A DNA stretch of 64,000 bases from Macrostomum lignano (taxonomy: Eukaryota): NCBI GenBank assembly GCA_002269645.1, contig NIVC01000102.1, positions 639,950 through 703,949 of the forward strand. Direction: 5' to 3'. Under the pieces are notes generated by a model, which saw only the letters and a list, made by a program, of their open reading frames with translations, ran no database searches and was not told where the DNA came from. This document shows positions 32,197 to 63,585 of this stretch, in pieces; the stretch's first letter is position 1; the number at the start of each line of letters is the position of its first letter. The position numbers and the translations under genes are program-made.

Positions 32197-35100
32197 ATGT
32201 CGCTAAAAGCATCCGAACTAAATGAGCGCGCCGAAAAATCTGAAGACGAATCCGAGGCCAATTTAACGGGCGAGGAAGCCAGCGACTCATCAGTCCAGTC
32301 CGACAGAGAGGCCGATGACTCAGAAGACGATGAAGACAAAGAGATCGAGGACTACTGGAAGGACGATTCGGATCTCATTGAGCAGACAGACAATCAAGCT
32401 ACCAGCGAGCAGCAACCAGCCGAGTTAGTACTCGGCGCTGACGCAGAGCAGCCCGCCTTGCCGCTGTCGCAGCGGTTGCTTCGTCTGGCTCGCAGCTTTG
32501 AGTTCGAGACGGCTAACCGGCTGCTCACGGAGCTTGCCGGCTCCGGGACTTCAACCTTAACGCTGGAACGCGACCAACGCACTAGGCGAACTCTCATCCA
32601 CTACGCTGCTATGCACTCAAAAGGTCAAGAAACGCTTCAACTGCTGATTAATCTGGTCGGAATTGACAGTCTGACCGAGTCGGACAAGGCCAAGATGACG
32701 CCTTTGCACTTCGCCTCCCACTACCACTCGAGCAAGAGCTTGGCTCCGCTGTTAAGCCAGGTAAAGCGAAAAGTTCTCGAACAAAAGGACGCCAACGGAG
32801 ACACCTGCGCTCATTGGGCTGCCAGGAATCGCCGGAGCAAAGATGCCCTCCTCGCTTACTTAGAAGCGATTGGCCAGCAGTGCCTTGGCTGGCTGAATGC
32901 TAGAAGACGCACCGTGCTGAGCGAGGCGATGGCCACTTGCGACGCTGCAACCGCAGAGCGGCTGCTGGCGCAGGCCGGTTCCGAGTTGCTGGCTTTGAAA
33001 GACGAGGAAGGAAATTCTTGGGCCCACTATGCCGCCGACAATCGCGATGAAGCAGTAATCTTTGCTGCGATTGAAGCTGCTGGACCGGAGTGTCTGGGCT
33101 GGCAGAACTATCGCAAGCAGTCCGTCTTGCACCGGATCCTAGAGTCTTGCAGCGTCGAGGTCGGCAAGAAACTCGTGGCCCTGGCTGGCTCAGAAACGCT
33201 AAGCTTGCGCAATGAAATCGGTAGCACCTGTTTGCACATGATTGACAACAACAAAGAGGAGATACTTTCAGCCGCCTTGGACACTATTGGACCCGAGTGT
33301 TTGACCTGGCAGAACGCCAAGAAGCAATCGGTCCTGTACCACGCTGTGTTGACATGCAGCACCGAGCTCTGCAAGAAGCTGGTGCAAGAAGCAGATTCAG
33401 ACTGTTTGAGCTTACGCGATGAAGATGGCAACACCTGCTTGCACGAAGCCGTACGCAGCGACAGCAAGATCGAAATCGTCCTCAAAGCTGCTCAAACTGT
33501 CGGTTGGTGGTGTCTCGGCTGGCAAAATAACAAGAAACAGACTGTTCTGTACCTGGCCGTCAGTTCGTGCAGCGCCTCGGCTGCCAGTCACCTGCTGAAG
33601 ATGGCTCCGGCGGAGATTCTTCGAGTTGACGGTGATGGAAACACGCTGCTACATTCGCTGTTCCAGAGCGAGAAGCACCGACACAGCGACAATGAGATTC
33701 AGGAGTTCTTGTCCATGATGAATACGCTAGTTAAATCGGGTGTTCGCCTAGTCTGTGAGAACAATGTAGGTCAGAACTGCCTGCACAGTACAACAATGCT
33801 CGAAAGGTGCCTCGCACTCATCAATGATGAAAGCCGCAACTTTTGATACCTATAAGAAAATGTTCAAGCAATTGCTCAATAACTCCAGCGGCTTGCACGC
33901 CATTCACGCCTTTGCTGGTCGATATCGGCTGCGCGAGATTGTCAAGCCTCTGGCAAAGCTGTCGGAGCTGCAGGTGCCCGACCTGCTGCGCTAACAGTAA
34001 CCATGGACGCCAACAAGGGAGCCACGTGTCTGCATTTTGCCTGCGAAGCTGGCAACAAGGCGAATATTCGATACTTACTTCGGCAAGGTCTGTTGCTGCA
34101 GAACGTGACCCACAGCGGCATGTCCTGCATCGACTATGCCTATGAGAAAGGAAAACTCGACGAGGTGCTGGAGGTTGCCGAAGATTGTCAGAAAGGCCTG
34201 ACAATGACCGATCTATGGCGCCTAGTGGATCCTGCTCAAAGAGCACTGAAGCTTCCAGACAGATCGAATTCTCGTCAGCTGATTGCCTCAATCGCCCACG
34301 AATCGCTGAGAGTGGAAGGCCCAAGAGGGGATTCCCATAGCGTCTGCGACGACAAGCCAAGCAAACGACGAGGATCAGCTGTGAGTCTATCGGAGAAGCC
34401 GCCTGAAACTGCGGTTGCAGTGGCAAAAAAAGACGTCAGCCGCACAGACTGGGACGTATTGCTCAGAGCTATCGAACTGGACTCGTCACGTATCTTAAGA
34501 AGTGCCTTCAGCTTGAATCTGGTCACTTCAGACACGGAAAGGTGTCTGCCGATGTACTTAGCCCAGAAGCTAAATTCTGACACATATGACAGTAATCGCT
34601 ACTTCGACAAATCCGAAGAGTTTTTGAACCAAAAGCTCTTTAGCGTAGTCTCTGAGCTATTGGTGATTGACGTTGCCGCCTTCTTCGACAAGATGAACAT
34701 CTTGCCTGACTTGATTCTGACCCGCCAATTTGAACTAATTCCGGCTTGCATTAGTTTGCTGGTCTATCTCAAGCCGAAAATCGCCCAGAGACAGGGCAGG
34801 CTCGAGCAGCTAAAGGAGCTCCAGGGCAAGATTATCTGCATAGTGGTTAACGCTTTAGACGATCTATATATGTCAGCCAGCGAAGAGGAAAGGAACCTGT
34901 TGATTGACTACATCCGCGGCGACCTAAGAGACAATAACGGAGAAAATCCTGGACCTATGTTCCCGTGCAGGTGCGCTGACAATGCAGACAGATCCTCCTT
35001 CGAGTACATCACCCTGTTCGACATGGTGGAAGAGTCCGACTGCAGCGAGCTAATTGAAACTGACTGCATGCACAATGTCGCCCGGAAAGCCTGGCACCCG

Positions 35101-37099
35101 AGGCCGCAGTACACGGAGGCCAGCGGCAAGAAAAAACGCTTTACTGATCCGTTCACTCCCAAAGTGAAGTTCTACATTCACCACGTCGCTTTCGTCATCT
35201 TCTTGGCCTACGCAGCCTGGTACATTCTAGACTTCAAAATGACTTTCTACACCGTGATCCCGGACATCCTGCTATCTTTGTACGCAGCCTCCTACACTGT
35301 GCAGGAATTTGCAGATTTTTGGCGCCGCAGAGCCTTGAAAAACTTCTATGTCAATAAACGAATAATCAGATGCCCATCGTACTTCCAGGATGCGATTAAC
35401 TTATTTGATTGCTTCGCCATCCTGTTTCTATGGATCGGACTGTTCTGGAAGTGGATAATCTTCTACGTAGTCGAAGACAGTAACACAACTTATGCGTGCC
35501 AAATGATGCTAACTATATCTTTCACTCTGTGGGGATTTCGATCTGTCGCTTTCCTCAGCTATCATGAAAGAACTGGACCAGTCATCTCCATGCTGAGCAG
35601 TCTGCTAATTCTCGACCTCCTGCCATTTTTGGCAATTGTGATGATAATATTTTACGTCTTCGGTGTGCTGTTCTTCAATCTACTCTTCCCCGTGATCTTC
35701 TCCCCAGCCTCAGAGATGAATGGTAGCGGCTACGCTTGGAAGGTGATACTACAGGTTTTTACTCTGCCGTTTAACTTATTGTTCACTACCTTCGACACTA
35801 CTTCGTTGGAGCCGTCGTCTGCCACGGTCAACCAAACAATTGGCAAAGTGGCGCATCCTCAGGGATTAGCGTGGTTCAAAAACTTACTGTTATTTGTATT
35901 CCTTTTCCTGGTGAACATCGTCATGGTGAACCTGTTGATTGCGTTGTTCAGCCTTCGAGTCAGTCGAATGGACAGTCGGGCTCTGGGAATTTGGCGTAGG
36001 ACCTACTTTGAGATGCTGCGCGAGTACCAGACCCTTGGGCCCTTGCCACCGCCTGTGTCCTTCATCAGCGAGATTGTTCTTCCTATCATGCGGTTTGTTC
36101 GAGGCGCAAGAGTGCAACCTACCGATAAAAGTGTAAGTCTTGGGATTCAAAACTTCGTAGGAATAGTGCGAATTTGATGCATGCATATCATGTATGATCC
36201 GTTCCATATCTATCCATTCGATTACAAGATACCAAGAGGGATTTACTAAGATGCAAAGGCTCGAAGACGAGGCTGATATCTCAAGCTAGAAAGCTTAATA
36301 TCAGGCGTAATGCTTATATGTTTTTAACGTAAGCCGAAGAGACGGGCAACTTTTTCCACAGCCTATGACATTGGCCTTTGCACAGACGACTTTTCTAATT
36401 AAAAAATTTAACCACATGGCGTGAAGTAGTATAATCAAATCGAATGTCGACGTGTCTAAATTGAATTCAATTTTTGTTGAAACTAAACGGGAAATTAAAA
36501 AAAGAACTCAAAACGATTCCTAACCTCAAAAAACGTTTCAGGAATGGTGGCTTAACGAAAGCGACTACCCAGACGAGTACGTCAGCTTCTTGAGGTTCCA
36601 GGCCACTCGCTTCCGGCGTTGCCGGCCTCAGCTTAGCCGAGAGGTGACCCGCAATCGAAGCGACTTCGACGGATTGAAAGCGCACACTGGCAACCTGATG
36701 GACACGCTGCAGGAGCAACTCGACTCGAGGCTGGGTGCCATGGCTGACCGACAGGAAGAGACTTCTCAAAGGCTGACAGGGCGGCTAGACAAGGTTGAAG
36801 AGAGTCTGGCGCAGGGCGTGCAAGTTCGGGAGCAGCAGCAACAGGTGCCTGCCACTTCCGACAGGCTTTCTCAAAATTTGGTTCCGGAAGCTGTTATCGA
36901 CGATAAGCTTCGAGCTCTAGAAGCGAGACTGACTGCCGAGCTTCGAGCGGCGACATCAACGGTTGAGCCAGGGCCAGACGCCGGTCCCGATGACAGTCGC
37001 TACCGAAAGACTACCTCTCGGCTGAGACAGCAGCGACGCAAAATCAAAGAGTTGGACAGCAAGCTGGATTCGATTATTGAGCTGCTGAAACGGAACTAA
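32197..37099 (+). CDS. Ankyrin-repeat TRP channel (TRPM-like S1-S6 and TRP domain), copy 1; exons 32197-36132 and 36542-37099; two compensating 1-nt frameshifts at about 33841 and 33990
   Basis: Acidic N-terminus, many ANK repeats (GDTCAHWAA, GNTCLHEAV, GNTLLHSL, GATCLHFAC), six TM segments, VNIVMVNLLIALFS (S6), IWRRTYFEMLREY..LPPP, AGT|GTAAGT and TTTCAG|GAA phase-0 intron, C-terminal coiled coil. Confidence 0.85.
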
Positions 37100-38408: not shown

Positions 38409-38900
38409 CTAACCTACTGGCTGCTAGAAAAATATGTATAGCCTGTAAACTTCTGTGGAAAACGTGGGCTTGTTAACCATGATGGAAGGTAATATCGTGC
38501 TGTTTTTAGCACTTTTAGCAACACTCGCATTAGTCTGAAGATAGCTGGGGTCATGTTTATGCTCACTCTCAAGCGCCAACAATTTTGGGTTCTGACTCAC
38601 CAGATATCTGAAGAAAACAAGAAAATCTAGCAGACTGCCTAAAGAGGCAGCGTGTTTATTGTTATTGCTTCGGCCTCAAGAGATAGGCGTCAGCCGTCAG
38701 GCACTTAGATTAAAAATAGTGGAGTTCAGATGGAAAAGCAACACTGCTGGAAGGAAAAAAGCAAAAATAGAATTGTGTTTACCTCGAGAATTGTACAGTT
38801 CATCTACAGACCAGTGGAAGAAGGAATTCTACAACAAAAAGCATCTCTCAAAAGCAGAGCAGCAGATATTGTTAGCGAATGAGATCAACTTTCTAACAAA

Positions 38901-41805
38901 ATGGACGCGTTGTCTCAGCGCAGATCAGCAGAACTGTTCCAGGCCTGCAAGTCAAAGAACTTCGCTTTGATTGACACGCAAAAGTTGAGCAAAGATTTCT
39001 CACAGTGGGCAGCCGTCACCGACACCAATGGAAGCACTCTGCTGCACGCCCTCTTCCAAGCTAATCAATCTTTGGATGACTTCGACTTAGAAAAGTTTGC
39101 AAGCACGGTTCACTGTCTACTCAAAGCTGGGGTTGATCCCGGTCAGGAGAACGGCTGTCTAAGGAACTGCCTGCTCGGCACCGAACTGGAGCAGAAGACA
39201 TTGAAGAGGATTCTTCACCGACTTTCCCAGTCTGACTTGAAACCGGCATTTGGCCCGCTCCAGACCAACTCACAGGGTCTTCATGCTGTTCATGTGTTCG
39301 TCTGTCGATACCAACTCGAGGATTTGCTGCCCGAGCTCAGTCAGCTATGCGACCTGAGCGTCAACGATTTGGTGAATCTTTGCGTGACTTCGGGTGACCT
39401 GTGCGGAGCCACCTGCCTTCACCTGGCGTGTCAAGCAGGGCAAGAGAAGAACATCAAGTTTCTGTTGGATCAGAGTCTGGACCTGACCGTTCAGACAGCT
39501 TCCGGACAAAATTGCGTCACTCTGGCGTGCTGCTCTGGAGAGCTGCAGGCACTGATAAATGCAGCAGCATCCGCTTCAATGGAACTCAGAGACCTACTAG
39601 TGTTAATTGACCCTCTAGAGAGTGGCCTGCCGCTTCCAGAGAAGTCAGTCTCTAAGCAGACTGTCTCTTTTCAATGGTCAGACCAGCTTGTCTCTTCCAG
39701 TTCAATGGTCAGATGGCTGGGAACCAGCTTGGACAGAAACAACGAAGTCAAACTCAAAAATGATGGGCAAAATTCCAGTTCGATCGCGCAACTATCGGCT
39801 CAAATGAGATGGCTTCTTCGAGCACTGGAACTGGACTCACCTGAAATTCTTCGCGATCTGATCGCTAGCGAGTTTGTCGCAGCAGACATGAGTCCAAGCG
39901 TGATTAGCAAGTTACAGGTTGCTTTGCTGACCAATGGTCGATCGTTGGAACATTTTCTCACAAATGAGACTATTCGACCCATTCTAATCGACAGCCAGAA
40001 CCCTTCTCTAATTGACTTTGCCATATTCTGTAGTAGAACCAATTTAGTGTCCGAACTATCAATGCTGCCACAATTCGACATCATTCCAAAGACGCTGTAC
40101 TTGCTGATTCAGCTGAGACTGAAAATTAAACTGCGACAAGGCAAGCTCAATCAGCTACTCGGAGCCAAGACTCAGGCTCTGAATGTGTTGGTCAACGTGC
40201 TCGAAGCACTGTACTCGAATGGGTCGGAGAATGAGCGACAGCTGCTCTTCGGCTACTTGACTGCGAGTTTCATCGACTCAAACGGCGTCAGAGGACCGAT
40301 GTTTCTCAATCCGCAGTGTCTCAACACCAGAGGTCGCAGACCGGCCGACAGCCAGTCTGAGTTCGTATCGGCCATGGAGCTGGTGGACATTGTCGATTCA
40401 GTCGAGCTTTTTGGCACCGAATGCATTAGCAAGCTGGTGTCCAAGTACTGGAAGCTGCCGCCACCGCTGCCTTGGAGACACGAGGCTGACGACGCCGACT
40501 TCAGCGACAAACCCCGTTGGCTGGGTGGCAATGAACTTTCGCCCTGCTGCTCGAAGCGTGGCTGCACCATTCAGGTAAAGTTCATCCTCGCATCGGTATA
40601 CTGTTTCCTGTTTCTCGGCTTCTTCGGATGGTACCTGATGGACTTTGGTCGAACTCTGAAGCACATGGAGGTGGACATAGTTATGGGTCTGTGCGCCGCG
40701 TCGCACACTCTGCAATGGTTCAATCAGCTTGCGACAATTCACGAGCTAAGGGAGGTGTTATTTACCACTAGCAGAAGAGTTTGTCGGAACTTTACTCACG
40801 GACTAGCTTACGTTGACCTGATAGCCCTACTGCTCATATGGACCGGCCTTGTACTCAAAATGCTGGGTCAGCACGGCCATAATGAGCAGGCTTTGTACGC
40901 CAGTCAAAGCGTAATGGGCGCCTCGTTTCTGTTCTGCGCCTTTCGCCTGGTGAGCCTCTACAACTACTTCAAAGTCACTGGGGCCAAGATCTCTATGTTT
41001 CTCAGCCTGCTCTACAAAGACTTTTGGCCGTTCTTTAACTTCGCTTTCGTCATCATTATCGCATTCGGGATATTTTTTACTACTCTGCTTTTCCCCATCA
41101 TGTCAAGCTCTGTGACCAGACAGCCCCGCGCCATTTTCAAGCACATATTCGTTGTTCCCATGCACCTGATGTTCGGCGACTTTGGCAAGGTTGATTTCGA
41201 CTCTTGCAATGAAACGCGACAGGCGGGCAATTTCGAGTGCGCCGCCAGCTCGGGATTCGTGGCGTTCAGCAAATATCTGGTGTTCCTATTCCTGATAGTT
41301 GTCAATATTGTGCTGGTGAACCTGCTGATTGCTCTGTTCAGCATGCGAGTGGCAGTGATGGATGTCAAGTGCATCGCCATATGGCGTCGGAATCGTTACA
41401 GGTGGGTTTTGTTCGGTTATTTTTCGTGCATCCTAAAGTATTTTGAATGTAACAATCGTATGTACTGTATGTACTTGTAAGAATAAAGTAAATGTTCTGG
41501 GGAGCAGGACAAATGGGGCAAAGTAGCCTACCAGCCGTTAATGTTTCTGAACTATAATCTGCAATATATTAAATTGCAGAATGCTTCTCGAATACTCGAC
41601 AGTGAGTCCTTTGCCAGCTCCGCTATCCAGTCTGCACTACATCGTAATGCTACTCAATCGGGCTCGCAGATGTACGGCTACCAAGGTTAACAGAGTAGCA
41701 ACTTTCGCGTCGGAAAAGGTGAACAATATTTGTACTTCAAATATATGATAAAAAATGCGTTCATGGACGACTAGAGTAGACAGACGTTGCTTCGCTAGGA
41801 AACTG

Positions 41806-41847
<42 letters not shown>

Positions 41848-41848
41848 A

Positions 41849-41940
<92 letters not shown>

Positions 41941-41959
41941 GCTGCTACTACTACTACTG

Positions 41960-42007
<48 letters not shown>

Positions 42008-42332
42008 ATTCTAATTGCAGAAACAACCCTGGTGGCAAAATCGGGAGTCATTCGCCGACTACCCCGAAGACTACAAGGCCTACCTGATTTACCAAGCCAC
42101 ACAGCTGCGTCAATGCCGGGCAAAGCTACGTCGCGGTGTGGAACGAAATCGAAGCGATGTCGACGTACTCGGAGCTTTCGTGGAAGGCGAGCTGGACAAG
42201 GCAACGGAGGAGCTGGCTAAGCAGGCGGAGTGTCGGCACCGAGAGGTGCAGTTTGAGCTGATCGAACATAGAGAGCAACTCAATCGGATTCTGGAATTTT
42301 TGACGAGAAACCGCTCGGCAAATGCGAAGTGA
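38901..42332 (+). CDS. Ankyrin-repeat TRP channel, copy 2 (short ANK array); exons 38901-41401, 41580-41685, 42021-42332
   Basis: Colinear with copy 1 (GSTLLHAL, GATCLHLAC, QGKLNQL, VKF..FL, VNIVLVNLLIALFS); spliced IWRRNRY|RMLLEYSTVSPLPAP; last exon DYPEDY.AYLIYQATQLRQCR matches copy 1 DYPDEYVSFLRFQATRFRRCR; GT-AG introns in frame. Confidence 0.88.
41803..42006. repeat. (CTA)n microsatellite in TRP copy 2 intron 2
   Basis: About 65 CTA units ending roughly 15 nt before the acceptor. Confidence 0.95.
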
Positions 42333-43269: not shown

Positions 43270-44690
43270 GTCTAGGGTTTGTGAAGTGTAGGTTGGTTTT
43301 TGAAGTGTAGGTTTTTGGAAGTTCAATAAATATAGATTTAACAGTTTGTGAAGTTGAAGGTTTGGGAAGTGTAGGGATTGGGAAGTGTAGGGTTTGGGAA
43401 GTGTAGGGTTTGGTAAGTGTAGGGTTTGGGAAGTGTAGGGATTGGGAAGTGTAGGGTTTGGGAAGTGTAGGGTTTGGTAAGTGTAGGGTTTGGGAAGGGT
43501 GAGGGTTTGGGAAGGGTGAGGGTTTGGGAAGGGTGAGGGTTTGGTAAGTGTAGTGTTTGGGAATTTAAGGTTTGGGAAGTATGAGGTTTGGGAAGTGTAG
43601 GGTTTGGGAAGTGTAGCGTTTAGTAAGTGTATTGTTTTGGAATTTTAAGGTTTGGAAATTTTAGGGTTTGGGAAGTGTAGGGTTTGGGAATTTTAGGGTT
43701 TTGGGAAGTTTAGGGTTTGGGAAGTTTAGGGATTGGGAAGTGTAGGGATTGGGAAGTGTAGGGTTTGGGAATTTTAGGGTTTTGGGAAGTTTAGGGTTTG
43801 GGAAGTGTAGGGTTTGGGAAGTGTAGTGTTTGGTAAGTGTAGTGTTTGGGAATTTTAGGGTTTGGGAAGTGTAGGGTTTGGGAAGTGTAGGGATTGGGAA
43901 GTGTAGGGTTTGGGAATTTTAGGGTTTTGGGAAGTGTAGGGTTTGGGAAGTGTAGGGTTTGGGAAGTGTAGGGTTTGGGAAGTGTAGGGTTTGGGAAGTG
44001 TAGGGTTTGGGAAGTTTAGGGTTTGGGAAGTGTAGGGTTTGGGAAGTGTAGTGTTTGGTAAGTGTAGTGTTTGGGAATTTTAGGGTTTGGGAAGTGTAGG
44101 GTTTGGGAAGTGTAGGGTTTTTGGTAAGTGTAGGGTTTGGGAAGTGTAGGGTTTGGGAAGTGTAGGGATTGGGAAGTGTAGGGTTTGGGAAGTGTAGAGT
44201 TTGGGAAGTGTAGGGATTGGGAAGTATATAGGGTTTGGGAAGTGTAGGGTTTTTGGTAAGTGTAGGGTTTGGTAAGTGTAGGGATTGGGAAGTGTAGGGA
44301 TTGGGAAGTGTAGGGTTTGGGAAGTGTAGAGTTTGGGAAGTGTAGGGATTGGGAAGTATATAGGGTTTGGGAAGTGTAGGGTTTTTGGTAAGTGTAGGGT
44401 TTGGGAAGTGTAGGGTTTGGGAATTTAAGGTTTGGGAAGTATGAGGTTTGGGAAGTATAGGGTTTGGGAAGTGTAGGGTTTTTGGTAAGTGTAGGGTTTG
44501 GGAAGTGTAGGGTTTGGGAATTTAAGGTTTGGGAAGTATGAGGTTTGGGAAGTATAGGGTTTGGGAAGTGTAGGGTTTAGTAAGTGTAGTGTTTTGGAAT
44601 TTTAAGGTTTGGGAATTTTAGGGTTTGGGAAGTGTAGGGTTTTGGAAGTTCAAGTTTTAGGAATAGTAGTGATTGGGAAGTGTATCCTAA
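43270..44690 (+). repeat. 16-bp G-rich minisatellite (GGGTTTGGGAAGTGTA)
   Basis: About 85 degenerate copies, two GGG tracts per unit. Confidence 0.95.
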
Positions 44691-47533
44691 GTACATGCAA
44701 AATCGTACATATGCATATCTACGAGCTTGTATTAGTATTTTTCTTCGAGGGGCTGCGTCGTCGTCAAATCCAATCGGATTTGAAATCTAGTCTCTAGTTT
44801 ATGTCTAGTCTAGACTAGCTCTAATCTAGTCCAGCATTGACCATAAGACAGGATTTGACTTAAAATTCCCACAGGAAAAACCCCGTGGCAAAACCTCGGC
44901 GAGAAACTCTCGCGGGAAAATCTCGTGCTCCCGTATGTACTATTTACTGGCCTGAGCGGTTATATGTCACTGAATTCTATTCCTGTTTATTTCTACACGT
45001 AGCTATTTTACTCCTATAGAGGGATTTCTCTCAGTCCGTGCGTTCCTGCGATCAGAGGGTCAGGCGATCTACTTCAGACTACTAAGTCTCGTTTCTAAAC
45101 GGTTCTTACATGTACATATGTAAATCTCCCATTTGTTGGGTCTCTAAGGGAATGACAAAGTCTTTTAAAACTGCAAATATCGAATTTGGTTAACTTTCCA
45201 AAGTTGGAAAAATATTACTGTTGAATTGAAAGGCTTTCTCGTTTTCTCGGTTTCTGCTCACTTACGAGCTAAGAGTATTTTTTGTTAAGACAAACGTTTA
45301 CAAAAAACTTTGGCGGCGAATTTGAATGCAGTTTTTTTTAAGAAAGTACGTAAACATACTATTTTAAAGAAAGAATATACGATTTAAACACTAGTAAAAA
45401 TACCACTACCCAAATATATTATAGTTGAATAAAAACGAGCATTTGCAATTCATTTAGTGCAAATTTTCATGGCCACTTCAAGGTCCTAAGAATAAAAAAT
45501 TCGCTTCCCTTGACGTCTATGTACCTGGTACTTTTACCACAGAACATTTACTACACATACATGACTTTTGTACTTTGCATGTACACGTAATAATGAACAA
45601 TATTAATGAAATTCATTTGAGTTTTGAAAGCGCACCAGAATTGTTCATTTACTTTGTAACCCGGCGGGAAATTCGAGGGCTGGCTGTGAGCTTTAAAGCA
45701 CAGAAAAAAGCTCACACAATGCAACAATCTCTACAGATCTCGGAGATTTAGGCGTAAAATGTTGTCCAGCCTACAGAAAATAGGCTACTAAGCAGATGTA
45801 CGTCCCGTTTATATAGTGAGTAGCGTATGCACAAGTAGTTTTGCAACTGAATGTCCACGCAATTGCACGCGATAGAATAGTGGTGCAGTTGTGCTTGCGA
45901 TTAAAAGACAAAGCATCCTCCCACGAAGAAAAAGACTAGAATAGATACACAGCACTTCTAATCGATTGGAATACAGCAGTCAGATGCTAAAGGAAGGCAG
46001 GAAACACTGCGTTTTAATTAAGCAGTAAATGCAGCGCGAACGTGCAGCTGCAAAATGTACGGATAAAGGCTTTGGCAGCCAGTCGCCAGTCGAGTACTCG
46101 CCAGCTCACTCAATCTCGTATTCGCGGCAACCGAGGGGGCCGGACACCACTCATCGCGTATGAAGCGCGTCAACGCGGTGAAAATTGCCGCGCGGGACGT
46201 GCATGGCGGTGCTTTAATCGGCGTTGACTCCATTGTAACTGTTGTTGTGGCTAAAAGTTGGGAAGAATTAGGAAAAATGGATTTTGTGTTTCTACTCGTC
46301 GGCGAGGGTGTCTGCGGACTGCGGCGCCTGCATATACCCCTCCTCGTCTTCTTCTATATCAACAAACACTATCGGTTTTAACTTGTAGGGCTTCCTCATT
46401 TCTGGCTCCACCTAATAACTATGGCTCTGAGTCTTTCCTTCTGCTCTTAGTTTGCTTACAGCCTATATAGGATTATAGAAAATAGCAGAGAAAAAGTAGT
46501 ATTTGCTAGAACCACTAGCTACAAGAAAAAGCAACCACTAAAGAAGCCGGCGGCACCTTGCCGGCCTCCTGCGCCCAAGAAACCGAAGCCTGCAGCCACA
46601 CAAAGCGACCGGCTGGTCCCGGCTGAAGGTCCGTCCCCGGCCAAGGCACTGGTGAGTTCTACGGGGTCAACTATCTCAACGTCAACTGGCGGAACTTGGG
46701 TGGCTTCTAAAGACCTGGCCTATCAACGTCACCTGGCGGCCGCCGCGTAGCAGTCCACATCGAGCGACTCTGAAGCCAACCGAATCCAAATCCTAATCCA
46801 AATCCGAATTCGAAATCCAAATTCGATATTCAATTTTTTTAAAAACGGTTGTGGATACAAAATATATTGGCCACCTAGGTTCCGCCAGGAACATTTCTAT
46901 ATTGTGGGTAAAATCTATTGAGCCTTTGCTTTTCTTCTTTCAGCGCTTGGTGCTACTCATTTTTGGTGCCGCACTGAAAATCTGTCCTGGAGAAAAGCTT
47001 TGCATAAACGAGACTGAGACAGCGTTAGCTCGAAAGTAATATTCGTGCAAGGTCTTTAAAGCGAGGCCTACAATGTGCAAATTCAAATTTGCGGATTCAA
47101 CTATTCAGCTTTATTCCAACGGAAGGCTGACAATTTTTTTGCCGCAATATGAATGCGGACGTGGCATCGATTTTACAGTTTGTTAACGAAATTACTATTT
47201 ACCAGTACAAACTGGATTTCGATTTTGTCCACGTTCAAACTTCTACATTGGTTGGTCAAGTTCAGTTTCCTGGGAGAAACAGCTTCCACTATTTAAAAAG
47301 CTGTGTCGGAAACTATGGAGACTTAGGGCAACCTACGATGCAGAAGTTTTTTCTGCAGACAATCAGTTAAGATAGTCAAAAACTCCCAGACTCTTTTGCA
47401 ACGTCTTTCATACTGCGAAGATTTTCGCAATGGGAGACAAAAAACGATACCAAAGTAAATCTCTTAACTCGATCTGTTAATGCACTGCTTGCCATGCTAC
47501 TAAAAGCAGCACAATCGGCAAAAAATTCCAGCC

Positions 47534-47909
47534 ATGGCCCGGACCTACATTCTCGAGGGAAATGTAGCGGTAGGCAAAACAATGCTTCTAAGAAATCTGG
47601 CCCTGAACTCGCGACTGAAGAAATGGGAACCGCAGTTTCTCTGGGGCCAAAGAGCCGGTTCATGCGTTCACCTCACACCCGAAGCTGCCGGCAGAGACGA
47701 ACTCGCTGGAGGAATTCTATCAAGGATCTCTTTCAGCAATCGGCTTTCAAATCCGTGCGAGCCATTGTCTGCTTCACTGGGACAAGAACATGAGAGAATT
47801 GCTACTCTCACCGGAGCCGGATCAACCGGAGTACGAAATTCTGGTGATGGAAAGGTCCATGGCGTCTGCTCACGCATTCAACTCGCTTCTGGCAGAGGCC
47901 CTCTATTGA
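47534..47909 (+). pseudogene. Deoxynucleoside kinase (dCK/dGK/TK2-like) N-terminal two-thirds, +1 frameshift at about 47643, truncated
   Basis: YILEGNVAVGKTML (dNK P-loop EGNIAxGK); after removing one G from CTGGGGCC: KEPVHAF..NSLEEFY..AIGFQ..LVMERSMASAHAF..L, the EPV / FY / FQ / ERS motif series of dNKs. Confidence 0.82.
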
Positions 47910-48769
47910 ACATGCCCCCTACGTTTGGGGTTCGTGAGTATTTCCACCTATTACTATTGGAATAACGTCCCCCTGCTGACAAGCATTCTTCAACACGATT
48001 AATTCTATTTATTAAAAATCGTTGTTGTTGATGCGGTTGTGGAAGGAGTTTTACTTGCTTGCCAGCCGACGGTTTGGTTTTGTCTCTATGCTGGCAATAA
48101 TTTGTGGCCATGCCCATCCTGGTGTCTGGTGTAAACTGACGGCTGGGGTTTTTTCGACCATTGGCAAGTAGCTCTTTGAAGTTGCATTGTGTGGATTTTT
48201 ATTTCCACAGCTGGGTGTCTAGGCCGACTATAGGTCATAGAACCATTCAGGTCCGCCTGGCCCAGTGCCTTAAATGCAACCAGACTAGTAAAGGAGCGCT
48301 AGATTCTGACCCAATATAACGAGGTCTGCGCTTGCATTCATTGGTTGAATTACGGTGTGCATAGGATAACAACAAACCCAATGCCAACGCAAGTGGAGTA
48401 TTGCATTTTCCACAGGAAAGTGAGGACGCTCGCGGCTACTTGGAGATGCACCACCACCACCATCTATTTTGTTGGTTGTGCATGTTGGCACTCGTTTTGT
48501 AGGTGCTGACGACAGCCGTTTGCATACATAGGATCTACAAACTCGCGCGGATTGATGAATAAAATAACGAGGGGCTAAAAGTCGACTAAAGTTAATCGTG
48601 TCACCCTCTATTATTAAAGACACGCCCTCGCGTTTGGGGTTCGCGAGTACTACTTCTACTACTATTTGTAGTGACGTCCCCCTGCTGACAAAAAAGTTTA
48701 TTTGTTTATTCTATTCTCTTAATAGGAAAATATTACTACTGCCTACACCGTTGGCTAATAAAACTTATC

Positions 48770-49095
48770 TCCCTTTCCAGCCCTTAATACGGTGTGTTGT
48801 GTGCAAGAGCATGTTTCGTTCTCGCGCGGAGTTGCACATTCACACGTAGTATCAATTCTGTTCCGTTCCTGAACTACTGGATGGGCCGATTCGCGAACTA
48901 ACTGCTGCCAACAATCCTCCTGATGGGTGAAGGGTTGAATTGCGCGAGTCAGCTCACCGAGGACAGATCAACTATTTGGTGTTTATACCTGGCCAGGACG
49001 GTGGTGACGCGGAGCGCCTGTTGCCACCTGGCGGCTTGTTGGCTCAATTGCGCGACTCGATTTACCGCCTATTCACACAGCTGGGTCCTCCTTAG
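48770..49095 (+). pseudogene. Degraded ORF with C2H2-like zinc finger (two in-frame stops)
   Basis: RCVVCKSMFRSRAELHIHT*YQFCSVPELLDG..DG*RVELRESAHRGQINYLVFIPGQDG..LRDSIYRLFTQLGPP in a single frame. Confidence 0.45.
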
Positions 49096-49107
49096 TTACT
49101 ACTACGA

Positions 49108-49766
49108 ACTTTAATGCGCCTAAAAGTGAGAATGGCTAGACCGAGAACGCCTACCACTGCTGCTGCCATCAACGAGAATGAATTAATTTCTGCATACTTC
49201 AACACCCAACGCTGCCACGATACGCTTTGACAACAACAACCACGCTCCCAACAAGCAGCAACGAGCAGCAGAACGATCGAGGTGCCGAGGTTAATTCTAG
49301 TAGCCTTCGTGAACAACAAGGTTTTCAATGGAAGTGGATACAAACCCATTCAACTGTCTGAATAGGCGGAACATGCAAGTCTCAGCAGAATTGCTGTGTT
49401 TGTTAACGAGGAGTCTGTCCCTTCGCGACCATTGCAAAAAAAATTGGTGCGGGTAGTTGTGTGAGAGAATATACCAATCTGCTGCAGCAGTTGGGGTTGT
49501 ATCTGCAAGGACGAGACGTTGGCATGGCTTCACAATGGAGGACTATGGCAGTGGATACTCGATTTTCGCGTTTGCGTTGGGAAGCGAGTCTGGTGTCGGG
49601 CATTAGTGCTCAGCTCTATAAGGAAGGGAATGTAAAGTTGGAGTTGCGCTTCGCTCAGGCAACAAGCGTTGTCTGTAAGTACAATGTAATATTCTGCGGT
49701 CTATTTGACAAGGAGCTGCAGATCACGGAGCTTCGCAACGTTGTGCCGGGTACAGCATGGAAGTGA
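49108..49766 (+). mobile_element. Polinton/Maverick (adintovirus-like) major capsid protein, C-terminal half, frameshifted
   Basis: Across frames: VPRLILVAFVNNKVFNGS / NPFN / RIAVFVNEESVPSRPL / EYTNLLQQLG / GNVKLELRFA..NVIFCGLFDKELQITELRNV, matching the recalled Polinton MCP pattern P.RIIIGFV.N.AFNG..NPFNF..I.L.VNG..VP..Y..L..G.L.LELRFA..D..IEID..RNV. Confidence 0.75.
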
Positions 49767-50191
49767 ATCTGAACATGTTGCTGGGTGTCAGGGATAGATT
49801 TTTGCGGTCAATTATTACAAATCTATGTATGGGATTGTTTGGTGTTGTCTTTTTAGGTGTGTATCATCAGGACTCGATTAGAGCTCTTAGACAATTACCT
49901 TTAGATGGTAGAGACTATTTCTTTGTGGCAATTACGGACACTTCGTATCTTCCTGGTAGGCATTGGGTGGTGGTTTGGGTGAGTAGCAAGCGAGTTGGGG
50001 GTCGTAGTGGACGAAGAGTTAGGGAGTATTTTGATTCGCTTGGTTGAAATCCCCTGGAAAATATTAGACGGTGGTTGGGGCGGGAATGTGGGGGTTTTCA
50101 GAATTGGACCTACAGCCAATTTGCTATTCAGGACCATCGAACTGGTCATTGCGGTATTCGGGTGTTGTTTTATTTGTTGATTCTCTTTTAA
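49757..50191 (+). mobile_element. Polinton/adenain-like cysteine protease, one in-frame stop
   Basis: FLGVYHQD..FVAITDTSYLPGRHWVVVW..EYFDSLG*..YSQFAIQDHRTGHCG gives the His-Asp-Gln-Cys set; ATG overlaps the MCP 3' end. Confidence 0.88.
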
Positions 50192-50930
50192 CGCGTGTTC
50201 TTGGTTGTGGGCCTCGTCGAGAAAATGAGTTTCGGCGCGCGTATTTTGCCTACAATGCTTTGCAATGCAATACAATGCAATGTGTTGCCTATATTCTTGT
50301 TATGCAGAAATATATCAAGAAACATTTTTTGGCCAGCTTGGTTGATCGACAATGTGGTCTTTTCTTTCATTTTTTGTGGGTGCGGTGCAGTAGATTGTGT
50401 AGTTAGAATTCACTGTTTGGGGGATAGAGAAGACAATGTGTTATGGAGCGAGTGTAAAAAAACTGACTTTATTTGCTGTCTGTGCGCTGTTCTGAACTGC
50501 GTTTTGGTAGCTTGGGAGAAGCATGAAAATTGACTGCTAGAACTTGACTCCCACAATTTATTGAGATCTTTTCTTTTGTTCTTTGTGGGTGCAGGCAGTA
50601 TAGACTGTGTAGTGAGGATTATTGTAGAATACCCTGTCCCAGCTGGTTTGGTACCTTACTATTTAATTTTCAATAGGAAAATGTGGTATGTGCGTAGTAG
50701 AATTTCTGACGGGTACCTTACTACTTTTTTGCAATAAAAATTGGAGTATGCGCATCATTTTCTATTACTACTGATGTGGAGTGATTATTTACGGGACACC
50801 AACCTATCCTACAAGCATTTTTCGAATGTATGAAAGTGATTTTCAGCAGTTTTAGTTGCAATAAAAGTCACTGAATCAAGAGACGTGCTACAAGTTCGTC
50901 AATTGTCTAAGGTGCAACTGACCAGTGTGG

Positions 50931-52143
50931 AAGTGTTGCCACCGACCCTAGAATCTCACGATTCTTACTCCCAGAGCAGAATCTCACGATTCTTACTCCC
51001 AGAATCTCAAGATTCTTACCCCCAGAATCTCACGATTCTTACCCCTAGAATCTCACGATTCTTACCCCTAGAATCTCACGATTCTTACTCCCAGAATCTC
51101 ACGATTCTTACTCCCAGAATCTCACGATTCTTACCATCAGAATCTCACGATTCTTACTCCCAGAATCTCACGATTCTTACTCCCAGAATCTCACGATTCT
51201 TACCCCTAGAATCTCACGATTCTTACTCCCAGAATCTCACGATTCTTACTCCCAGAATCTCACGATTCTTACTCCCAGAATCTCACGATTCTTACCATCA
51301 GAATCTCACTATTCTTACTCCCAGAATCTCACGATTCTTACTCCCAGAATCTCACGATTCTTACTCCTAGAATCTCACGATTCTTACTCCCAGAATCTCA
51401 CGATTCTTACCCATAGAATCTCACGATTCTTACTCCCAGAATCTCACGATTCTTACTCCCAGAATCTCACGATTCTTACTCCTAGAATCTCACGATTCTT
51501 ACTCCCAGAATCTCACGATTCTTACTCCCAGAATCTCACGATTCTTACTCCTGGAATCTCACGATTCTTACCCCTATAATCTCACGATTCTTACTGCCAG
51601 AATCTCACGATTTTTACCCCCATAATCTCACAATTCTTACCCCCAGAATCCAACGATTCTTAACCCTAGAATCTAACGATTCTTACTCCCAGAATATCAA
51701 GATTCTTACCCCCAGAATCTCACAATTCTTACCCCCAGAATCCAACGATTCTTAACCCTAGAATCTGACGATTCTTACTCCCAGAATATCAAGATTCTTA
51801 CCCCCAGAATCTCACGATTCTTACCCCTATAATCTCACGATTCTTACTCCCAGAATATCAAGATTCTTACCCCCAGAATCTCACAATTCTTACCCCCAGA
51901 ATCCAACGATTCTTAACCCTAGAATCTGACGATTCTTACTCCCAGAATCTCAAGATTCTTACCATCAGAATCTCACGATTCTTACCATCAGAATCTCACG
52001 ATTCTTACTACTAGAATCTCACGGTTCTTACCCCCAGAATCCCACAATTCTAATGCCTAGAATAAAAAATCGCTGAAAATTGCTGAATATGACAAAAAAT
52101 TGCTCAGCGATTAAAATTCATTGGAGTGGCATTGGCAATACTG
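50931..52143. mobile_element. Non-autonomous hAT-like element carrying a 23-bp hairpin minisatellite
   Basis: Ends AAGTGTTGCCA / TGGCAATACTG; 8-bp flanks CAGTGTGG (50923-50930) and CAGTGTGA (52144-52151); internal AGAATCTCACGATTCTTACTCCC array at about 50948-52050. Confidence 0.75.
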
Positions 52144-54745: not shown

Positions 54746-55925
54746 CAACTTTAGTGCATAAGGAATCAGAATAGAATCTTTATTAGCATAAAACTGGCAT
54801 AGCATATTGAGTCTGTATACATATGCAACCTTCAAAATTCAGTTAGCTGTGCAACTTAGTTTTAACAAAAATGCGACGTAGTTTTTGGCCAAAAATGTGA
54901 CTCATCAGCTACTTAGTACTACTACTTTGGTGCTTTTTTGGGTGAGCATTTTTGCAACTTCCTTGGTTGGCTGGATTAGCCGACTTGGCCAACTGTTGCA
55001 CATGTATGTGAGTCTGCATGCATTCTAAGAATTTTGTAAATTTATTGTAAAATATATAATTTACATAAATCATATAAATTATATAAATTACATAAAATAC
55101 ATAAAATAAAGGCACAGATGATGCACAAATGATGCATAAACGGCACAAATATGGCGCATAGATTGTCCCAAAAAAATTATTCTGGCACACACTAAGCCAC
55201 CTTACTTACAATGGGTTAATACAGCTGCATATCTTGTATAGCTTACAATTTTTGTTATATCAATGACTAGTTTTATTAATTGCCTTGTTTTTTTTAAATG
55301 ATCAAATTTTGCAATTTTGTAACACCAGATTGTATGTTCATTAGGTTAAATTTTTGAATGCAAATATCTATGCAAATGCGTCACCCATGTGCACTTATAC
55401 CCACCCATATGCATCTGGGCATTAATGAATCTTGAGTATTTGTATTATGCGACCATATATGCAACTATGTAACATGGGTATTTCTCCTATCTAAATATGT
55501 CAAGGATTGCTATAAAGTCCCATATGGAGTTGTGAAAATGAAAGGACTACATGTGCCTTCCCACCCCTCCACCTTACTATGCACAGTCAATCAAAGCAAA
55601 TCTTGATATCCAATAATGCTCTTGAGTATATAAATATGCACAATTCATGCGTGCTCATTGATCAATCATGCCTTACATGTATAAGGCATTTCAATCCCAT
55701 ATGTGCGTAACCTTGGGAATCACCCAGCTGTTTCTATTGACAACATATATATGTAAGTCGCTATTGGCTGAGAGCAGTCATGTGACTAATATTCTGTCTA
55801 ATAGCAACTTACATATGCATGTTGCAAAGGATTGAAACCAAATATTTGTTCTATCTAGATAGTTGCTATACTATAAAACTATGTAAAATGAAATTATTTG
55901 GAATGGATCACCAGAACAAAAGATA

Positions 55926-57212
55926 CAAGTGGCACTAAAAAAGTTCTGAGCCTCAGTATGAAAAAAAGAGAATTGGGGCAAATGCAATCAGTTTTTTCTA
56001 CATAGTCTTCCTTGACCAAGATGCACTTGTGACATCTTGATCGCAGTGCTTTGATGCTACTCTGAAAGAACTGCTTTGAGCACCCCTTGAACCAGAAGGT
56101 CGAAGTATCCTTCAGTGCCTCATTGGTGTCAAATTGCTGCCCACAGAGTGCTGGCTTAAGATGCGGAAATAGATAAAAGTCACTTGGGGCAAGGTCTGGT
56201 GAATAGGCAGCGTGTAGCAGCTCTTGGAACCCTGCAATATTGACAGCTGCCTTTGCCAGCCCATTGGTGTGAGCAGGTGCATTGTCGTGCAGCAGCACCA
56301 CCATGGCTCAGCATTCCCCGCCAATTCTCCTTGATTGCCTCGCGCATATGGGCAATTAGATTGGCATAGTAGGCACCTGTGATTGTCTGCTTATGTGGCA
56401 AAAAGTCTAGTAGCAGTGGGCCTTTGGCATCCCAAAAGATAGTGAGCATTATCTTGCCTGCATTGCATCCAGACTGTGCCTTCAGTGGTGCTGGTGCACC
56501 AACTGGCAGCCATTGCTTCAACTCTTTCTTTAACTTAGGATCATGATGGTGGATCCATGTCTCATCACTGGTCACATAGCAAGACAGAAAGCTGGCAGGA
56601 TCTAGATTGTAAGTTTGCAGGACAAGCTTCACATACTGCAACTACGCACACTTCTGGTCGCTTGTCAAGATTTGTGGGATCTATTAGGCTGAGACCTTCG
56701 ACAAATAAAGATGCTGGTGCAGGATCTCAATGACCTATGGGTCAGAAAGCCTAGTGTCCGCCAGAAGTTCCCTGACCTTTACCTACCAGTTGCCATCAAC
56801 CAGGGCCTGGATGCACGCTGGATGTTGTCAGCAGTGATAGCAGTCCAGGGGCGTCCATATAGAGGGTCATCTTTGAGAGAGTCGGGCCACACTTGAACTT
56901 GGCTGCCCAATGCTTGACAGTGGCATATGAGGAGGCAGCCCTAGCATATATGGTAGCCATGCAACTTTGGATTTCAGCAGCTTTTGAGCCCTTTAAGGTC
57001 AGAAATTTGATCACTACCCTGTATTTCATTTTTAGTTCTTGAGAATTTGCCATAGGTAGCTGAAAATATTAAGGTGCTATAGAACTTTAGTAATGCCTAG
57101 AGAGCTGAAAATTTTGTCAAAGACTATTAACATATTGTGTTAAAGGATCAATTTTCAGTGCTTTGTGCCCATGGGATCTTGGTCAGGCTTAGAACTTTTT
57201 TAGTGCCCCTCA
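55926..57212 (-). mobile_element. Full-length (1287 bp) decayed mariner (DD34D) transposon
   Basis: TIRs GGCACTAAAAAAGTTCT.AGCCT at both ends, TA flanks at 55924-55925 and 57213-57214; HTH YRVVIKFL, VTSDETWIHH, LLHDNAPAH, YSPDLAPSDFYLF; several frameshifts. Confidence 0.93.
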
Positions 57213-58653
57213 TATAATGAAAAAGCTACATTTTAGATAAGCCTTTGTAGCTTGGTTAATTATTAGTGGAACATATAAAAGTGTGTAGATATCTTATTAA
57301 GTACAGAAGTGCATAGACAATGTTTGATTCTACCAAATATATAATTGTACAAAATTTCAAAAATAGTTTTATTGTTTATCTAACATTATATAGCTCAACA
57401 TTTTTTTGAAACTTTTGCAGATTTTAAAAATGCAACTATAAGAAGTAAAAATAAAGCCTATTAAAATTATAATTAAATCTTTTAGGCCTAGTCTTATTAT
57501 TGTATTATTGCTTACTCATGGCAAATAAACAAATAATAAAGTATCATAAGACAAAAGCCAGGAATCAATATATAAGTTGTTATAATGCATTATGCATTCC
57601 AAAGTGCATTGCTAGGTATATTGTTTGGAACAAAAAAGCAGTAAATAAAGTGAATTTATAAATTCTTTGTCATTGAAACTAATGTAGCTAGTAAGTAAAT
57701 ATTTTGTGTACACAAAGTAGTTACATTAAATGTAGAGTCCATAGGGCAGTGCAAAAACCAATAGGCAGAAAACAAAGAATCAAACTTGTACTATGAATAT
57801 GATGGTTGTCCAAAAAGTCTTACAACTTTTTTTACATTACTCTTTTTAATAGTCAGCAAAAATAAAAGCAACTGATTTATTTCATAGCACTTTACTTACA
57901 AATGACAGTGAAAGAATTTTGAAAATATCACAAACTTTTCAAAAGTTATGCCTCCTTAACTGCAGTGGGATACTATATCTTAATACACAAATAGGAACAA
58001 AAAACTAAACTACAATTAGAAATCTCATAGTAGGGGCAAAAAATTCTAGTGTGTGCCACATCATCACTTTCTATTTCTATATCTTTTGTATAAGTTTTAT
58101 TTGCTTCTGCTTGTGTGACACTCTGAAATAGCCACTGAAAGACTCATTTTGAGACATACAGTAACCTGAAGGGTGACTATTGAAGGGTGACTATATTGAG
58201 GAGGTCTCAGTTGCCATTAAGAAATACATTTGAACTTTTTTTGAAAGACAACTGACTTGCTGTTTCCTGGTACTTGTACTCCAAAGCTTATGCAGCATCC
58301 AAGTTCCTTTTCATGGATTGAGATGCAGTATCCCAATGCAGCGAAGAAAGCATAACTTTTGAAAAGTTCATGATACAAGCATGTGTCATAATATTAATTT
58401 TATTTTATTTTAGTATTTTACATTTTGCAACTCACTTCTGTGGGTCAAAGAGGCTTAGTGCATAAATTTTACTAAACTTTTTTTGAGTCTCTACTGACAG
58501 TAGAAATATAAGGAAAATACGCCAATAAAAAATAAAATGTGTCCAATACATATATTTACTGTTAAACTAAACTTACAATATAATAGTCAACAAACAAAGG
58601 ATAACTGCTTACCATTGCAGCAAATTCAAATTCAAATCTATTTTTGAATCGTC

Positions 58654-59118
58654 ATGGCAACCCCGTCGCGTCGTCGTTTAATCCGAGATTTCAAGCGCCT
58701 CCAAGAGGACCCTCCAGCCGGGGTGTCTGGTGCACCCAAGGAGGACAATATTATGCAGTGGAATTGCGTCATATTCGGTCCTCAGGACACCCCGTTCGAG
58801 GACGGCACCTTCCAGCTGACCATGGAGTTCACTGAGGAATATCCCAATAAGCCGCCTACGGTTAGATTCGTATCGAAAATGTTCCACCCCAATGTGTACG
58901 CGGATGGCAGTATCTGTTTGGACATTCTGCAGAGCAAGTGGAGCCCCACCTACGATGTGTCAGCAATCCTCACCTCCATTCAGTCTCTGCTGGACGAGCC
59001 GAACCCGAACTCACCAGCCAATAACGTTGCCGCCACTCTCTACCAGGAGAATAAGCGGGAATATGAGAAGAAAGTTCGTGCTATTGTTGAGGAGAGCTGG
59101 CTCATGCAAGACGCTTGA
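58654..59118 (+). CDS. UBE2A: Ubiquitin-conjugating enzyme E2 A/B (Rad6), intronless CDS, 154 aa
   Basis: [63 protein letters not shown], near-identical to Rad6/UBE2A/B with the catalytic Cys. Confidence 0.97.
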
Positions 59119-60627: not shown

Positions 60628-60718
60628 TTAAAAGGCTCAAGCTTAAATTCATCCTCGTTGGTTATCCTGCCGAGTTTTTAATACGTACTCGTGTTTGATT
60701 CCCCATAGCAACGCCGTC

Positions 60719-63585
60719 ATGGTGCTTGGCAATGACGTTTGGTTGCCGGCGGCCTCAGAGCTGGAGGTGCCGGAGCTCAACATCACCACCATGCCGCTGC
60801 TGGCCGCCGCGCACCAGCTGGGCCGCTTCTGCGACAACCAGTGCAAGGAGTTCATGCTGTGCCACCAGGAGACGCTCAAGGTAGGCGATGCCTCACCCTA
60901 CTGTGGCTGTCTGTCTACTTTTGTAATTTTATAGTTAAACTCTGCCTTACCTACTTAGTCAATACTACTCTACAATGCTTACTTCATCTCTACGCTACTC
61001 AATATACCCCTACTCAACCTGACTCTACTCAATCTACCCTACTCAATCTACCCTACTCAACCTACCCTACTCAATCTACCCTACTCAATATACCCTATTC
61101 AATCTACCCTACTTAATCTACCCTACTCAATCTACCCCTACTCAATCTACCCCTACTCAAATTCCCTACTCAATCTACCCTACTCAATCTACCCTACTCA
61201 ATCTACCCCTACTCAATATACCCTACTCAATCTACCCTACTCATCTACCCTACTCAATCTACCCTACTCAATCTACTCTACTCAATCTACCCCTACTCAA
61301 TTTACCCTACTCAATCTACCCTACTCAATCTACTCTACTCAATCTACCCCTACTCAATTTACCCTACTCAATCTACCCTACTCAATCTACCCCTACTCAA
61401 TTTACCCTACTCAATCTACCCTACTCAATTTACCCTACTCAATCTACCCTACTCAATCTACCCCTACTCAGTTTACTCTACTCAATATACACTACTTAAT
61501 CTACCCTACTCAATCTACCCTACTCAATCTACCCCTACTCAATATACCCTATTCAATCTACCCCTACTCAATCTACCCTACTCAATCTACTCTACTCAAT
61601 ATACCCTACTCAATCTACCTCTAATCAATATACCCTACTCAATCTACCCTACTCAATCTACCCTACCCAATCTACCCTACTCAATCTACCCCTACTCAAT
61701 ATACCCTACTCAATATACCCTACTCAATATACCCTACTCAATCTACCCTACTCAATCTACCTACTCAATATACCCTTCTCAATCTACCCTACTCAATCTA
61801 CCCTACTCAATCTACCTACTCAATATACCCTTCTCAATCTACCCTACTCAATCTACCCTACTCAATCTACCTACTCAATATACCCTTACTCAATATACCT
61901 TACTCAATATACCCTACTCAATATACCCTACTCAATATACCCTACTCAATATACCCTACTCAGTTTACTCTACTCAATATACACTACTTAATCTACCTAA
62001 CATACTCTATCATTCTACTCTATCTACCAAATGCAACTCAAAGGACCCGCGCAAGTGCCTGGCCGAGGGCAAGGCCGTCACCGAGTGCGGCCTGGAGTTC
62101 TTCCGCCAGATCAAGCGCCACTGCGCCCTGCCGTTCGAGCGCTACTTGAACTGCTTTGAGAAGCGCTCGACCTCTTATAACCGGCCGGCCTACTGCCGGC
62201 GGGAGCAGGGCCCGTTTGACGACTGCGTGAGGCAGCACCTGGGACAGGTAGGTGATCGTGCGGACGGCTATGTCCTGTCACCTGTTTTAGATAGACACCG
62301 GTTATCACCTGTATTATACACCGGTTATCACCTGTATTAGACACCGGTTATCACCTGTATTAGACACCGGTTATCACCTGTATTAGACACCGGTTATCAC
62401 CTGTATTAGACACTGGTTATCACATGTATTAGACACCGGTTATCACCTGTATTAGACACCGGTTATCACCTGTATTAGACACCGGTTATCACCTGTATTA
62501 GACACCGGTTATCACCTGTATTAGACACCGGTTATCACCTGTATTAGACACCGGTTATCACCTGTATTAGACACCGGTTATCACCTGTTTTAGACACCGG
62601 TTATCACCTGTATTAGACACCGGTTATCACCTGTATTAGACACCGGTTATCACCTGTATTAGACACCGGTTATCACCTGTATTAGACACCGGTTATCACC
62701 TGTATTAAACACCGGTTATCACCTGTATTAGACACCGGTTATCACCTGTTTTAGACACCGGTTATCATCTGTTTTAGACACCGGTTATCACCTGTTTTAG
62801 ACACCGGTTATCACCTGTATTAGACACCGGTTATCACCTGTATTAGACACCGGTTATCACCTGTATTAGACACCGGTTATCACATGTATTAGACACCGGT
62901 TATCACCTGTATTAGACACCGGTTATCACCTGTATTAGACACCGGTTATCACCTGTATTAGACACCGGTTATCACCTGTATTAGACACCGGTTATCACCT
63001 GTATTAGACACCGGTTATCACCTGTATTAGACACCGGTTATCACCTGTATTAGACACCGGTTATCACCTGTATTAGACACCGGTTATCACCTGTATTAGA
63101 CACCGGTTATCACCTGTTTTAGACACCGGTTATCACCTGTATTAAACACCGGTTATCACCTGTATTAGACACCGGTTATCACCTGTTTCAGACACCGGTT
63201 ATCACCTGTATTAGACACCGGTTATCACCTGTTTTAGACACCGGTTATCACCTGTTTTATCACCTGTTTTAGACACCGGTTTATTCCCCCAAACCGCAAT
63301 CCCCCCCAGGAGCGGCCACCTCCCGGCTACTTCAGCAAGATCCGCTTGCACGACAGCCAGCGGCCGCGCCATCCGGTGCCGCCAGCCCCCATGCCGCAGC
63401 GCATCGAAGAGCGAGACTTGGACAGCGTCACTGAGCCGCCCGGCACCCCCGACCCGCTGTTTGCCTTCAACAGCCGCGACACCTCGGAGGAGGGTCAGCG
63501 CCGAGCCAGAGAGTGGCTCAGGCTCGACAAGGAGCGGACTACTAGCAGGAACTTCGTGCCACCGGCTGACGATAGCTCTGAGTGA
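60719..63585 (+). CDS. NDUFA8: NADH dehydrogenase 1 alpha subcomplex subunit 8, 3 exons (60719-60880, 62044-62247, 63310-63585), 213 aa
   Basis: LPAASELEVPEL..LLAAAHQLGRFCD..KEFMLC..|DPRKCLAEGKAVTECGLEFFRQIKRHC..FDDCVRQHLG matches the NDUFA8 twin CX9C pattern; two phase-0 GT-AG introns. Confidence 0.93.
60990..61995. repeat. 14-15 bp minisatellite (CTACTCAATCTACC) filling NDUFA8 intron 1
   Basis: About 70 copies. Confidence 0.95.
62290..63275. repeat. 23-bp minisatellite (TTAGACACCGGTTATCACCTGTA) filling NDUFA8 intron 2
   Basis: About 42 highly homogeneous copies. Confidence 0.95.

Follow-up and report, generated by a model that had tools for sequence, protein, structure and literature searches.

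Animal Polintons or Mavericks, the adintoviruses of Starrett et al. (PMC8502044), include forms such as L009, a metagenomic adintovirus in which the adenain gene lies just after the capsid gene and zinc fingers are found at or before the start of PolB. A deoxynucleoside kinase (dNK) is absent from the accessory genes treated in section 3.2 of that paper. One described element in which a dNK does appear is uAdinto18782 (Buck et al., PMC11071296, supplementary file 2; contig LQRL01138240, given as 'hydroides cnidarian' in the file, on the 'Unsubmitted' sheet), which is annotated there, under the authors' labels, with adenain, hexon, pX, packaging ATPase, integrase, dUTPase, a zinc ribbon, dNK, a PC4-like protein and PolB. 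Other adintoviruses bear dUTPase or dCTP deaminase labels in the same supplement. Meld29240, a Giardia-associated meldvirus (GenBank BK066919; PMC11071296), is, like the element considered here, a midsize linear dsDNA element and has a 'Tkoid' gene with dNK-type motifs visible by eye, but its polymerase is of the HelPol type and it is protist-associated rather than an animal adintovirus.

Among the entries listed from the PMC11071296 catalogue, one gene is named dNK and one is a weak 'Tkoid', against 466 named 'hexon' over all virus groups, this being a count of names; dNK looks rare among adintoviruses. No main-text discussion of a dNK in an animal Polinton was found in a literature represented largely by titles and abstracts. 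PMC11071296 also lists four Macrostomum adintovirus contigs (GEXL01013493, LFJF01006280, LFJF01047747 and NIVC01005149), and a Macrostomum dNK may already be annotated among them. A first-pass annotation of the DNA studied here had proposed that a dNK would be an unusual complement for a Polinton: rare it appears to be, but not novel, since one is annotated in uAdinto18782 and a dNK-type gene in Meld29240.

The window, that is the whole stretch of DNA analysed, comprises 64,000 nucleotides of Macrostomum lignano contig NIVC01000102.1. We read the feature of interest within it as a dead, internally deleted Macrostomum copy of a Polinton (adintovirus), likely with a dNK as accessory gene, and give this reading a probability of about 0.7. 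The fragments of capsid, protease and dNK genes lie on one strand within 2.7 kb. The features are as follows:

46451..46750, + strand: 99-aa ORF rich in Lys and Pro, where the shared span begins on the left (from the ORF list; 3′ part common to a sibling, X12 record 18)
~46541..50760, + strand: decayed, internally deleted Polinton-type element (from sibling contigs; ends not TIR-defined)
47534..47900, + strand: dNK pseudogene, codons 1-122 of 223, frameshift near 47645, C-terminal half deleted (match to P0007)
47899..47981, + strand: deletion junction, 81 nt where a sibling has 564 other letters, then colinear (X1 record 5)
48787..49092, + strand: C2H2-like zinc finger and following frame, possibly a Polinton PolB N-terminus (weak; hhalign)
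49279..49766, + strand: Polinton/adintovirus double jelly-roll major capsid protein (MCP) gene, C-terminal third, in three frames (match to P0008)
49757..50191, + strand: adenain-type cysteine protease gene with one in-frame stop (homology to L009 adenain)
50192..50760, no strand assigned: multi-copy tail of unassigned content (sibling pieces 13-14% diverged)

The capsid fragment is best seen against P0008, an intact homolog of 442 aa, whose residues 289-442 match 49282-49763 in three frames with 52, 61 and 65% identity (combined E 4e-33). Searched against 1.84 billion representatives, the fragment gave nine matches, eight of them capsid-like, and 46 of 126 MCP homologs match the window at E<=1e-3. 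None of the matching homologs longer than 400 aa aligned before its own residue 256, and the window therefore holds the C-terminal part only. It falls in a divergent group, with 50-67% identity per piece to P0008 and P0037, 39-49% to P0010 and lower values to the others. P0008 itself has 122 relatives at E<=1e-10, the named animal ones being mostly 'F54H12.2-like', a label which we take to be a marker of Polinton capsids. Its predicted model (pLDDT 72.6) matches the capsids of Sputnik, mavirus and PBCV-1 (E 5e-16 to 7e-14) and also an iridovirus capsid. Both the identity of the MCP and, for the intact homolog P0008, the double jelly-roll fold, which had been named as a check on it, are upheld by these matches. 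The hexon is, in addition, reciprocally recognisable with that of animal Polintons, L009 standing at 31% to P0008.

The protease gene opens with an ATG at 49757 and the MCP stop ends at 49766, so that the two share 10 nt; this is the overlap of capsid C-terminus and protease start that had been noticed from the letters alone. The protease matches the adenain of L009 (E 2e-12), which carries Pfam Peptidase_C5, and a profile of ten sequences (iE 1.4e-12, the next-best site elsewhere being at 2.4). Its His, Asp, Gln and Cys motifs are visible. A Gly/Arg-rich insertion stands at 49901-50057, ahead of the YFDS motif; contigs of other copies skip within this interval and the loop therefore varies among copies. 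The adjacency of MCP and protease is kept in loci L010-L012 and L014-L019. L010-L019, ten contigs of prokaryotic genomes in GTDB (from symbionts and MAGs), have Polinton capsid genes, and several of them also carry protease, ATPase, integrase and PolB genes, likely as contaminating host DNA in the bins. By its capsid and protease sequences the remnant is a Polinton/adintovirus, as it had first been read.

In contrast to animal adintoviruses, the window copy is without PolB core, integrase, ATPase and TIRs, and it differs likewise from uAdinto18782, a near-complete element that also bears a dUTPase. Strict membership of the Polintons is not completable from this copy, as it has no integrase, ATPase or TIRs. 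Over the 64-kb window, a profile of four integrases gave no match better than iE 30 and one of seven ATPases none better than iE 0.94, while profiles of PolB core, penton and pX found nothing. An inverted-repeat search over 42-56 kb of the window returned no TIR pair (best left-right inverted match E 0.31). The profiles and this search agree with the first-pass annotation, which had seen no PolB, integrase, TIR or TSD; no TSD is readable because the ends of the element are undefined.

The span of the element was instead taken from related copies. Sibling contigs, 7.8-13.7% diverged from the window, begin at 46541 and extend to 50704, and summed depth drops to single-copy level beyond 50760 (runs X1 and X10). 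Neither Pfam nor PHROG has a match for the 99-aa Lys/Pro-rich ORF at the left end. The tail gave no Pfam, PHROG or profile match and is not ATPase or integrase by profile; it contains an internal 53-nt repeat (50358-50410 and 50567-50620).

Tandem arrays lie at 43344-44684 and 50950-52051, and the genome of the window is generally rich in tandem repeats. A very high-copy short element with CTAG repeats is found at 44763-44900 (X10 summed depth 4666 against ~200 nearby). To the left, its other copies have 44860-44890 in inverted form (joint 44761/44883 on opposite strands; fold z -2.7), from which the element looks palindromic and truncated in the window. A MITE or the end of an element would be possible readings, and the right side showed no partner. 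Further away, several features were labelled by eye: two ankyrin/TRP-channel-like host genes in tandem, whose coding exons are very long (33883-37099 and 38883-42332; ORFs of 764 and 865 aa), decayed mariner-like transposase pieces (55894-57068, - strand), an intronless ubiquitin-conjugating enzyme ORF (UBE2A/Rad6-like; 58648-59118, + strand) and an NDUFA8-like gene with tandem repeats filling its introns (60647-62340, + strand).

The dNK fragment is identical to P0007, an intact dNK paralog annotated as an M. lignano gene (PAA57108.1), at 30 of 37 and 74 of 85 residues. The dNK reported from the letters alone is thus real, but it ends at about codon 122 of 223 and is therefore without the lid region, a loss that had gone unstated. 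The window copy keeps the P-loop and ERS region only, the full motif set (P-loop, catalytic Glu/Arg and lid arginines) being found in intact P0007. At the deletion junction, the 81 nt resemble 48610-48691; a 61-nt repeat (47922-47982 and 48631-48691, 82% identical) has its first copy at the junction and may represent either a regulatory motif or small genes that are paralogous. A frameshifted ORF immediately before the dNK (~47075-47470, + strand) is common to the siblings. A PC4-like reading of ~47075-47200 was made by eye alone, had no Pfam or PHROG match and was dropped. Pfam missed dNK, MCP and protease alike on the raw window fragments, and PDB sequence searches were blank or weak.

P0007 carries the Pfam dNK domain (PF01712) at E 9e-21 and matches Drosophila dNK at E 1e-7. 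It keeps the P-loop, E40, Y62, Q72, E106-R107 and the lid residues R167, R169 and E172, which we take to be catalytic and substrate-binding residues, and has an alanine at the site of Drosophila dNK A110, presumably permitting thymidine. It belongs to the same family as the Drosophila multisubstrate dNK (PDB 1j90) and the dNKs of large DNA viruses, with conserved active-site residues, but is only 27-33% identical to the nearest relatives found, and its substrate range is a prediction. In the Atlas, it reaches TM 0.77-0.85 to dNK clusters; of the eight neighbouring clusters shown by features, five have a viral share of 76-100%, two have one of 50% and the last is bacterial, taxa that rest on few members. 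The dNK of uAdinto18782 shares with P0007 the P-loop, EP, ERS and R-x-R-x-G-E motifs in a comparison by eye alone. A 1.5-kb contig with the dNK nearest to P0007 has no informative neighbour gene, and no Polinton capsid was found among seven viral loci with distant dNKs, nor was a dNK-like ORF found in the 11 partial Polinton loci (L009-L019) by reading ORF starts. No mention of Mlig029005 was found in the literature.

Whether the dNK belongs to the element was addressed with the sibling copies. Contigs of four of the 24 listed runs were aligned to 44700-50940 at 80% likeness, and the statements below refer to the matches listed (32 of 877). Near-identical contigs, one of which covers 47603-48963, confirm the local assembly. 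Siblings at 8-14% divergence occur in runs X1, X8, X10 and X12, as expected of a dispersed multi-copy family. X12, guessed to be an RNA run, was set aside as evidence of expression, since it also covers the non-coding flank. One sibling tile (46541-47645) carries ~1 kb of upstream DNA into the dNK. Another follows 47644-47899, continues into 564 other letters and rejoins the window at 47981-48229. These 564 letters could hold the 101 codons that are missing but not much more, and the sibling dNK is therefore probably intronless and continues into the same downstream DNA. Further tiles cover 48050-48365, 48577-49076 and 50384-50704; the tiles come from different runs and may represent different copies. 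In the 5′ part of the dNK, both of the two read variants listed give the residue of intact P0007, which links P0007 with the siblings. The 7.8-13.7% range was measured on nine sibling pieces; covering dNK, zinc-finger and tail sequences but not MCP or protease, they fit the earlier statement that the genes are similarly decayed.

These copies bear on the caveat, raised with the first description, that the dNK might be an adjacent host retrocopy. In its fuller form this explanation takes the dNK for a host gene or retrocopy beside the remnant and the siblings for homeologs or old segmental duplicates, in a recently polyploid genome with large indel differences between paralogs (PMC10733133), and it accommodates the annotation of P0007 as an M. 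lignano gene. Homeologs can be rejected, since the subgenomes of M. lignano differ by 1.9-2.4% (PMC10733133), far from the 7.8-13.7% of the siblings. A retrocopy would not bring 1 kb of upstream DNA together with downstream DNA, which the diverged siblings share along with the dNK. P0007, moreover, is a one-member cluster without a close paralog among 1032 candidates (122-391 aa), the one other at E<=1e-3 being a metagenomic dNK at 33%, and is distant from insect and human dNKs (35 and 26 bits). We consider a host origin improbable. Diverged siblings that tile both the dNK and its flanks indicate that its surroundings are those of a multi-copy element and that it is no solitary retrocopy of a host gene; on these sequences, it is most likely part of the same multi-copy element.

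Alternatively, the dNK might have arrived with the Polinton while intact P0007 is by now a domesticated host gene, outside any live element. No other intact dNK of its family was found, it has kept its catalytic residues and it figures in the annotated gene set; likewise, no capsid protein named for M. lignano is present among the 120 homologs listed. Intact capsid ORFs of the nearest clade are nevertheless found in Logan contigs, host unstated (P0008, P0018 and P0037), and domestication appears very improbable.

A greater challenge to the dNK as cargo would be a chimera, in which the dNK block stems from a different endogenous DNA virus, or from a segment that was duplicated, and came to adjoin a Polinton's capsid-protease tail through a deletion or a nested insertion. 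Summed depth in X10 steps up from the dNK zone (622-633) to a level 2-4x higher over capsid and protease (1364-2664); depth is not copy number, and the step suggests that many family members may lack the dNK arm. No sibling contig bridging dNK and capsid and no sibling piece over 48365-48577 is present among the matches listed (32 of 877), and in X1 the interval 48253-48879 is covered by the window's own copy only. Large DNA viruses and phages have dNKs that this one resembles, and the genes between it and the capsid are not firmly Polinton. On the other hand, sibling divergence is in the same range on either side of the capsid, all genes are on one strand, no gene of another virus group was found in the remnant with Pfam or PHROG, and uAdinto18782 provides a precedent for a dNK within an adintovirus.

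The zinc-finger ORF between dNK and capsid also leans against a chimera, in the direction of PolB. A C-x2-C-x12-H motif is present at 48787-48850, but of the C2H2 finger first proposed only three of four ligands remain, the fourth being lost at a stop, and Pfam finds nothing. The Polinton PolBs of L010, L012 and L017 start with C2H2 fingers. Compared by hhalign with these three PolB N-termini, the finger and the next 20 residues gave a probability of 44.5% (E 2e-4, 40 columns; control 0.1%). Against the PolB of L010 the ORF beats 999 of 1000 shuffles, without reaching significance against three others; profile searches against PolB, a motif profile included, gave no match, and the Atlas has no usable match for 48931-49092. 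By eye, it resembles Adinto8025 PolBa-N. This ORF is likely, though not proven, to be the start of a PolB, with a large deletion joining it to the capsid gene. The interval 47910-48440 was also considered as a penton gene, without support: at 47910-47969, 20 residues show a likeness that is not significant (E 0.014 among 34 queries, hhalign 1.9%). Taking both sides together, we regard a chimera as unlikely, and the dNK is probably true cargo of the Polinton remnant.

Under this preferred reading, the ancestral element would have carried early and accessory genes including the dNK, followed by PolB, and a large deletion would have joined the beginning of PolB to the final third of the capsid gene. 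In uAdinto18782 the dNK, likewise a Polinton cargo, is listed before PolB, between integrase/dUTPase and PolB, which is the position we infer for the window element. The kinase of intact copies is predicted to phosphorylate deoxynucleosides obtained by salvage, thymidine probably among them, and thereby to supply dNTPs to the element's own protein-primed polymerase. The kinase of the window copy is inactive because the lid half of the enzyme is missing.

Nucleotide-salvage genes suggest replication when or where the host supplies no dNTPs, which touches on the question of a true viral phase in animal Polintons. A case from a laboratory flatworm in which the enzyme survives intact is useful, although the pattern to which it adds is already catalogued and the window copy is dead. 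It is possible, with the odds well against it, that Macrostomum hosts a distinct and still-intact adintovirus lineage which took its kinase from large DNA viruses and copies itself in post-mitotic cells. If this were true, a flatworm in which only stem cells divide would be a tractable model for showing that animal Polintons act as genuine viruses rather than as germline transposons alone.
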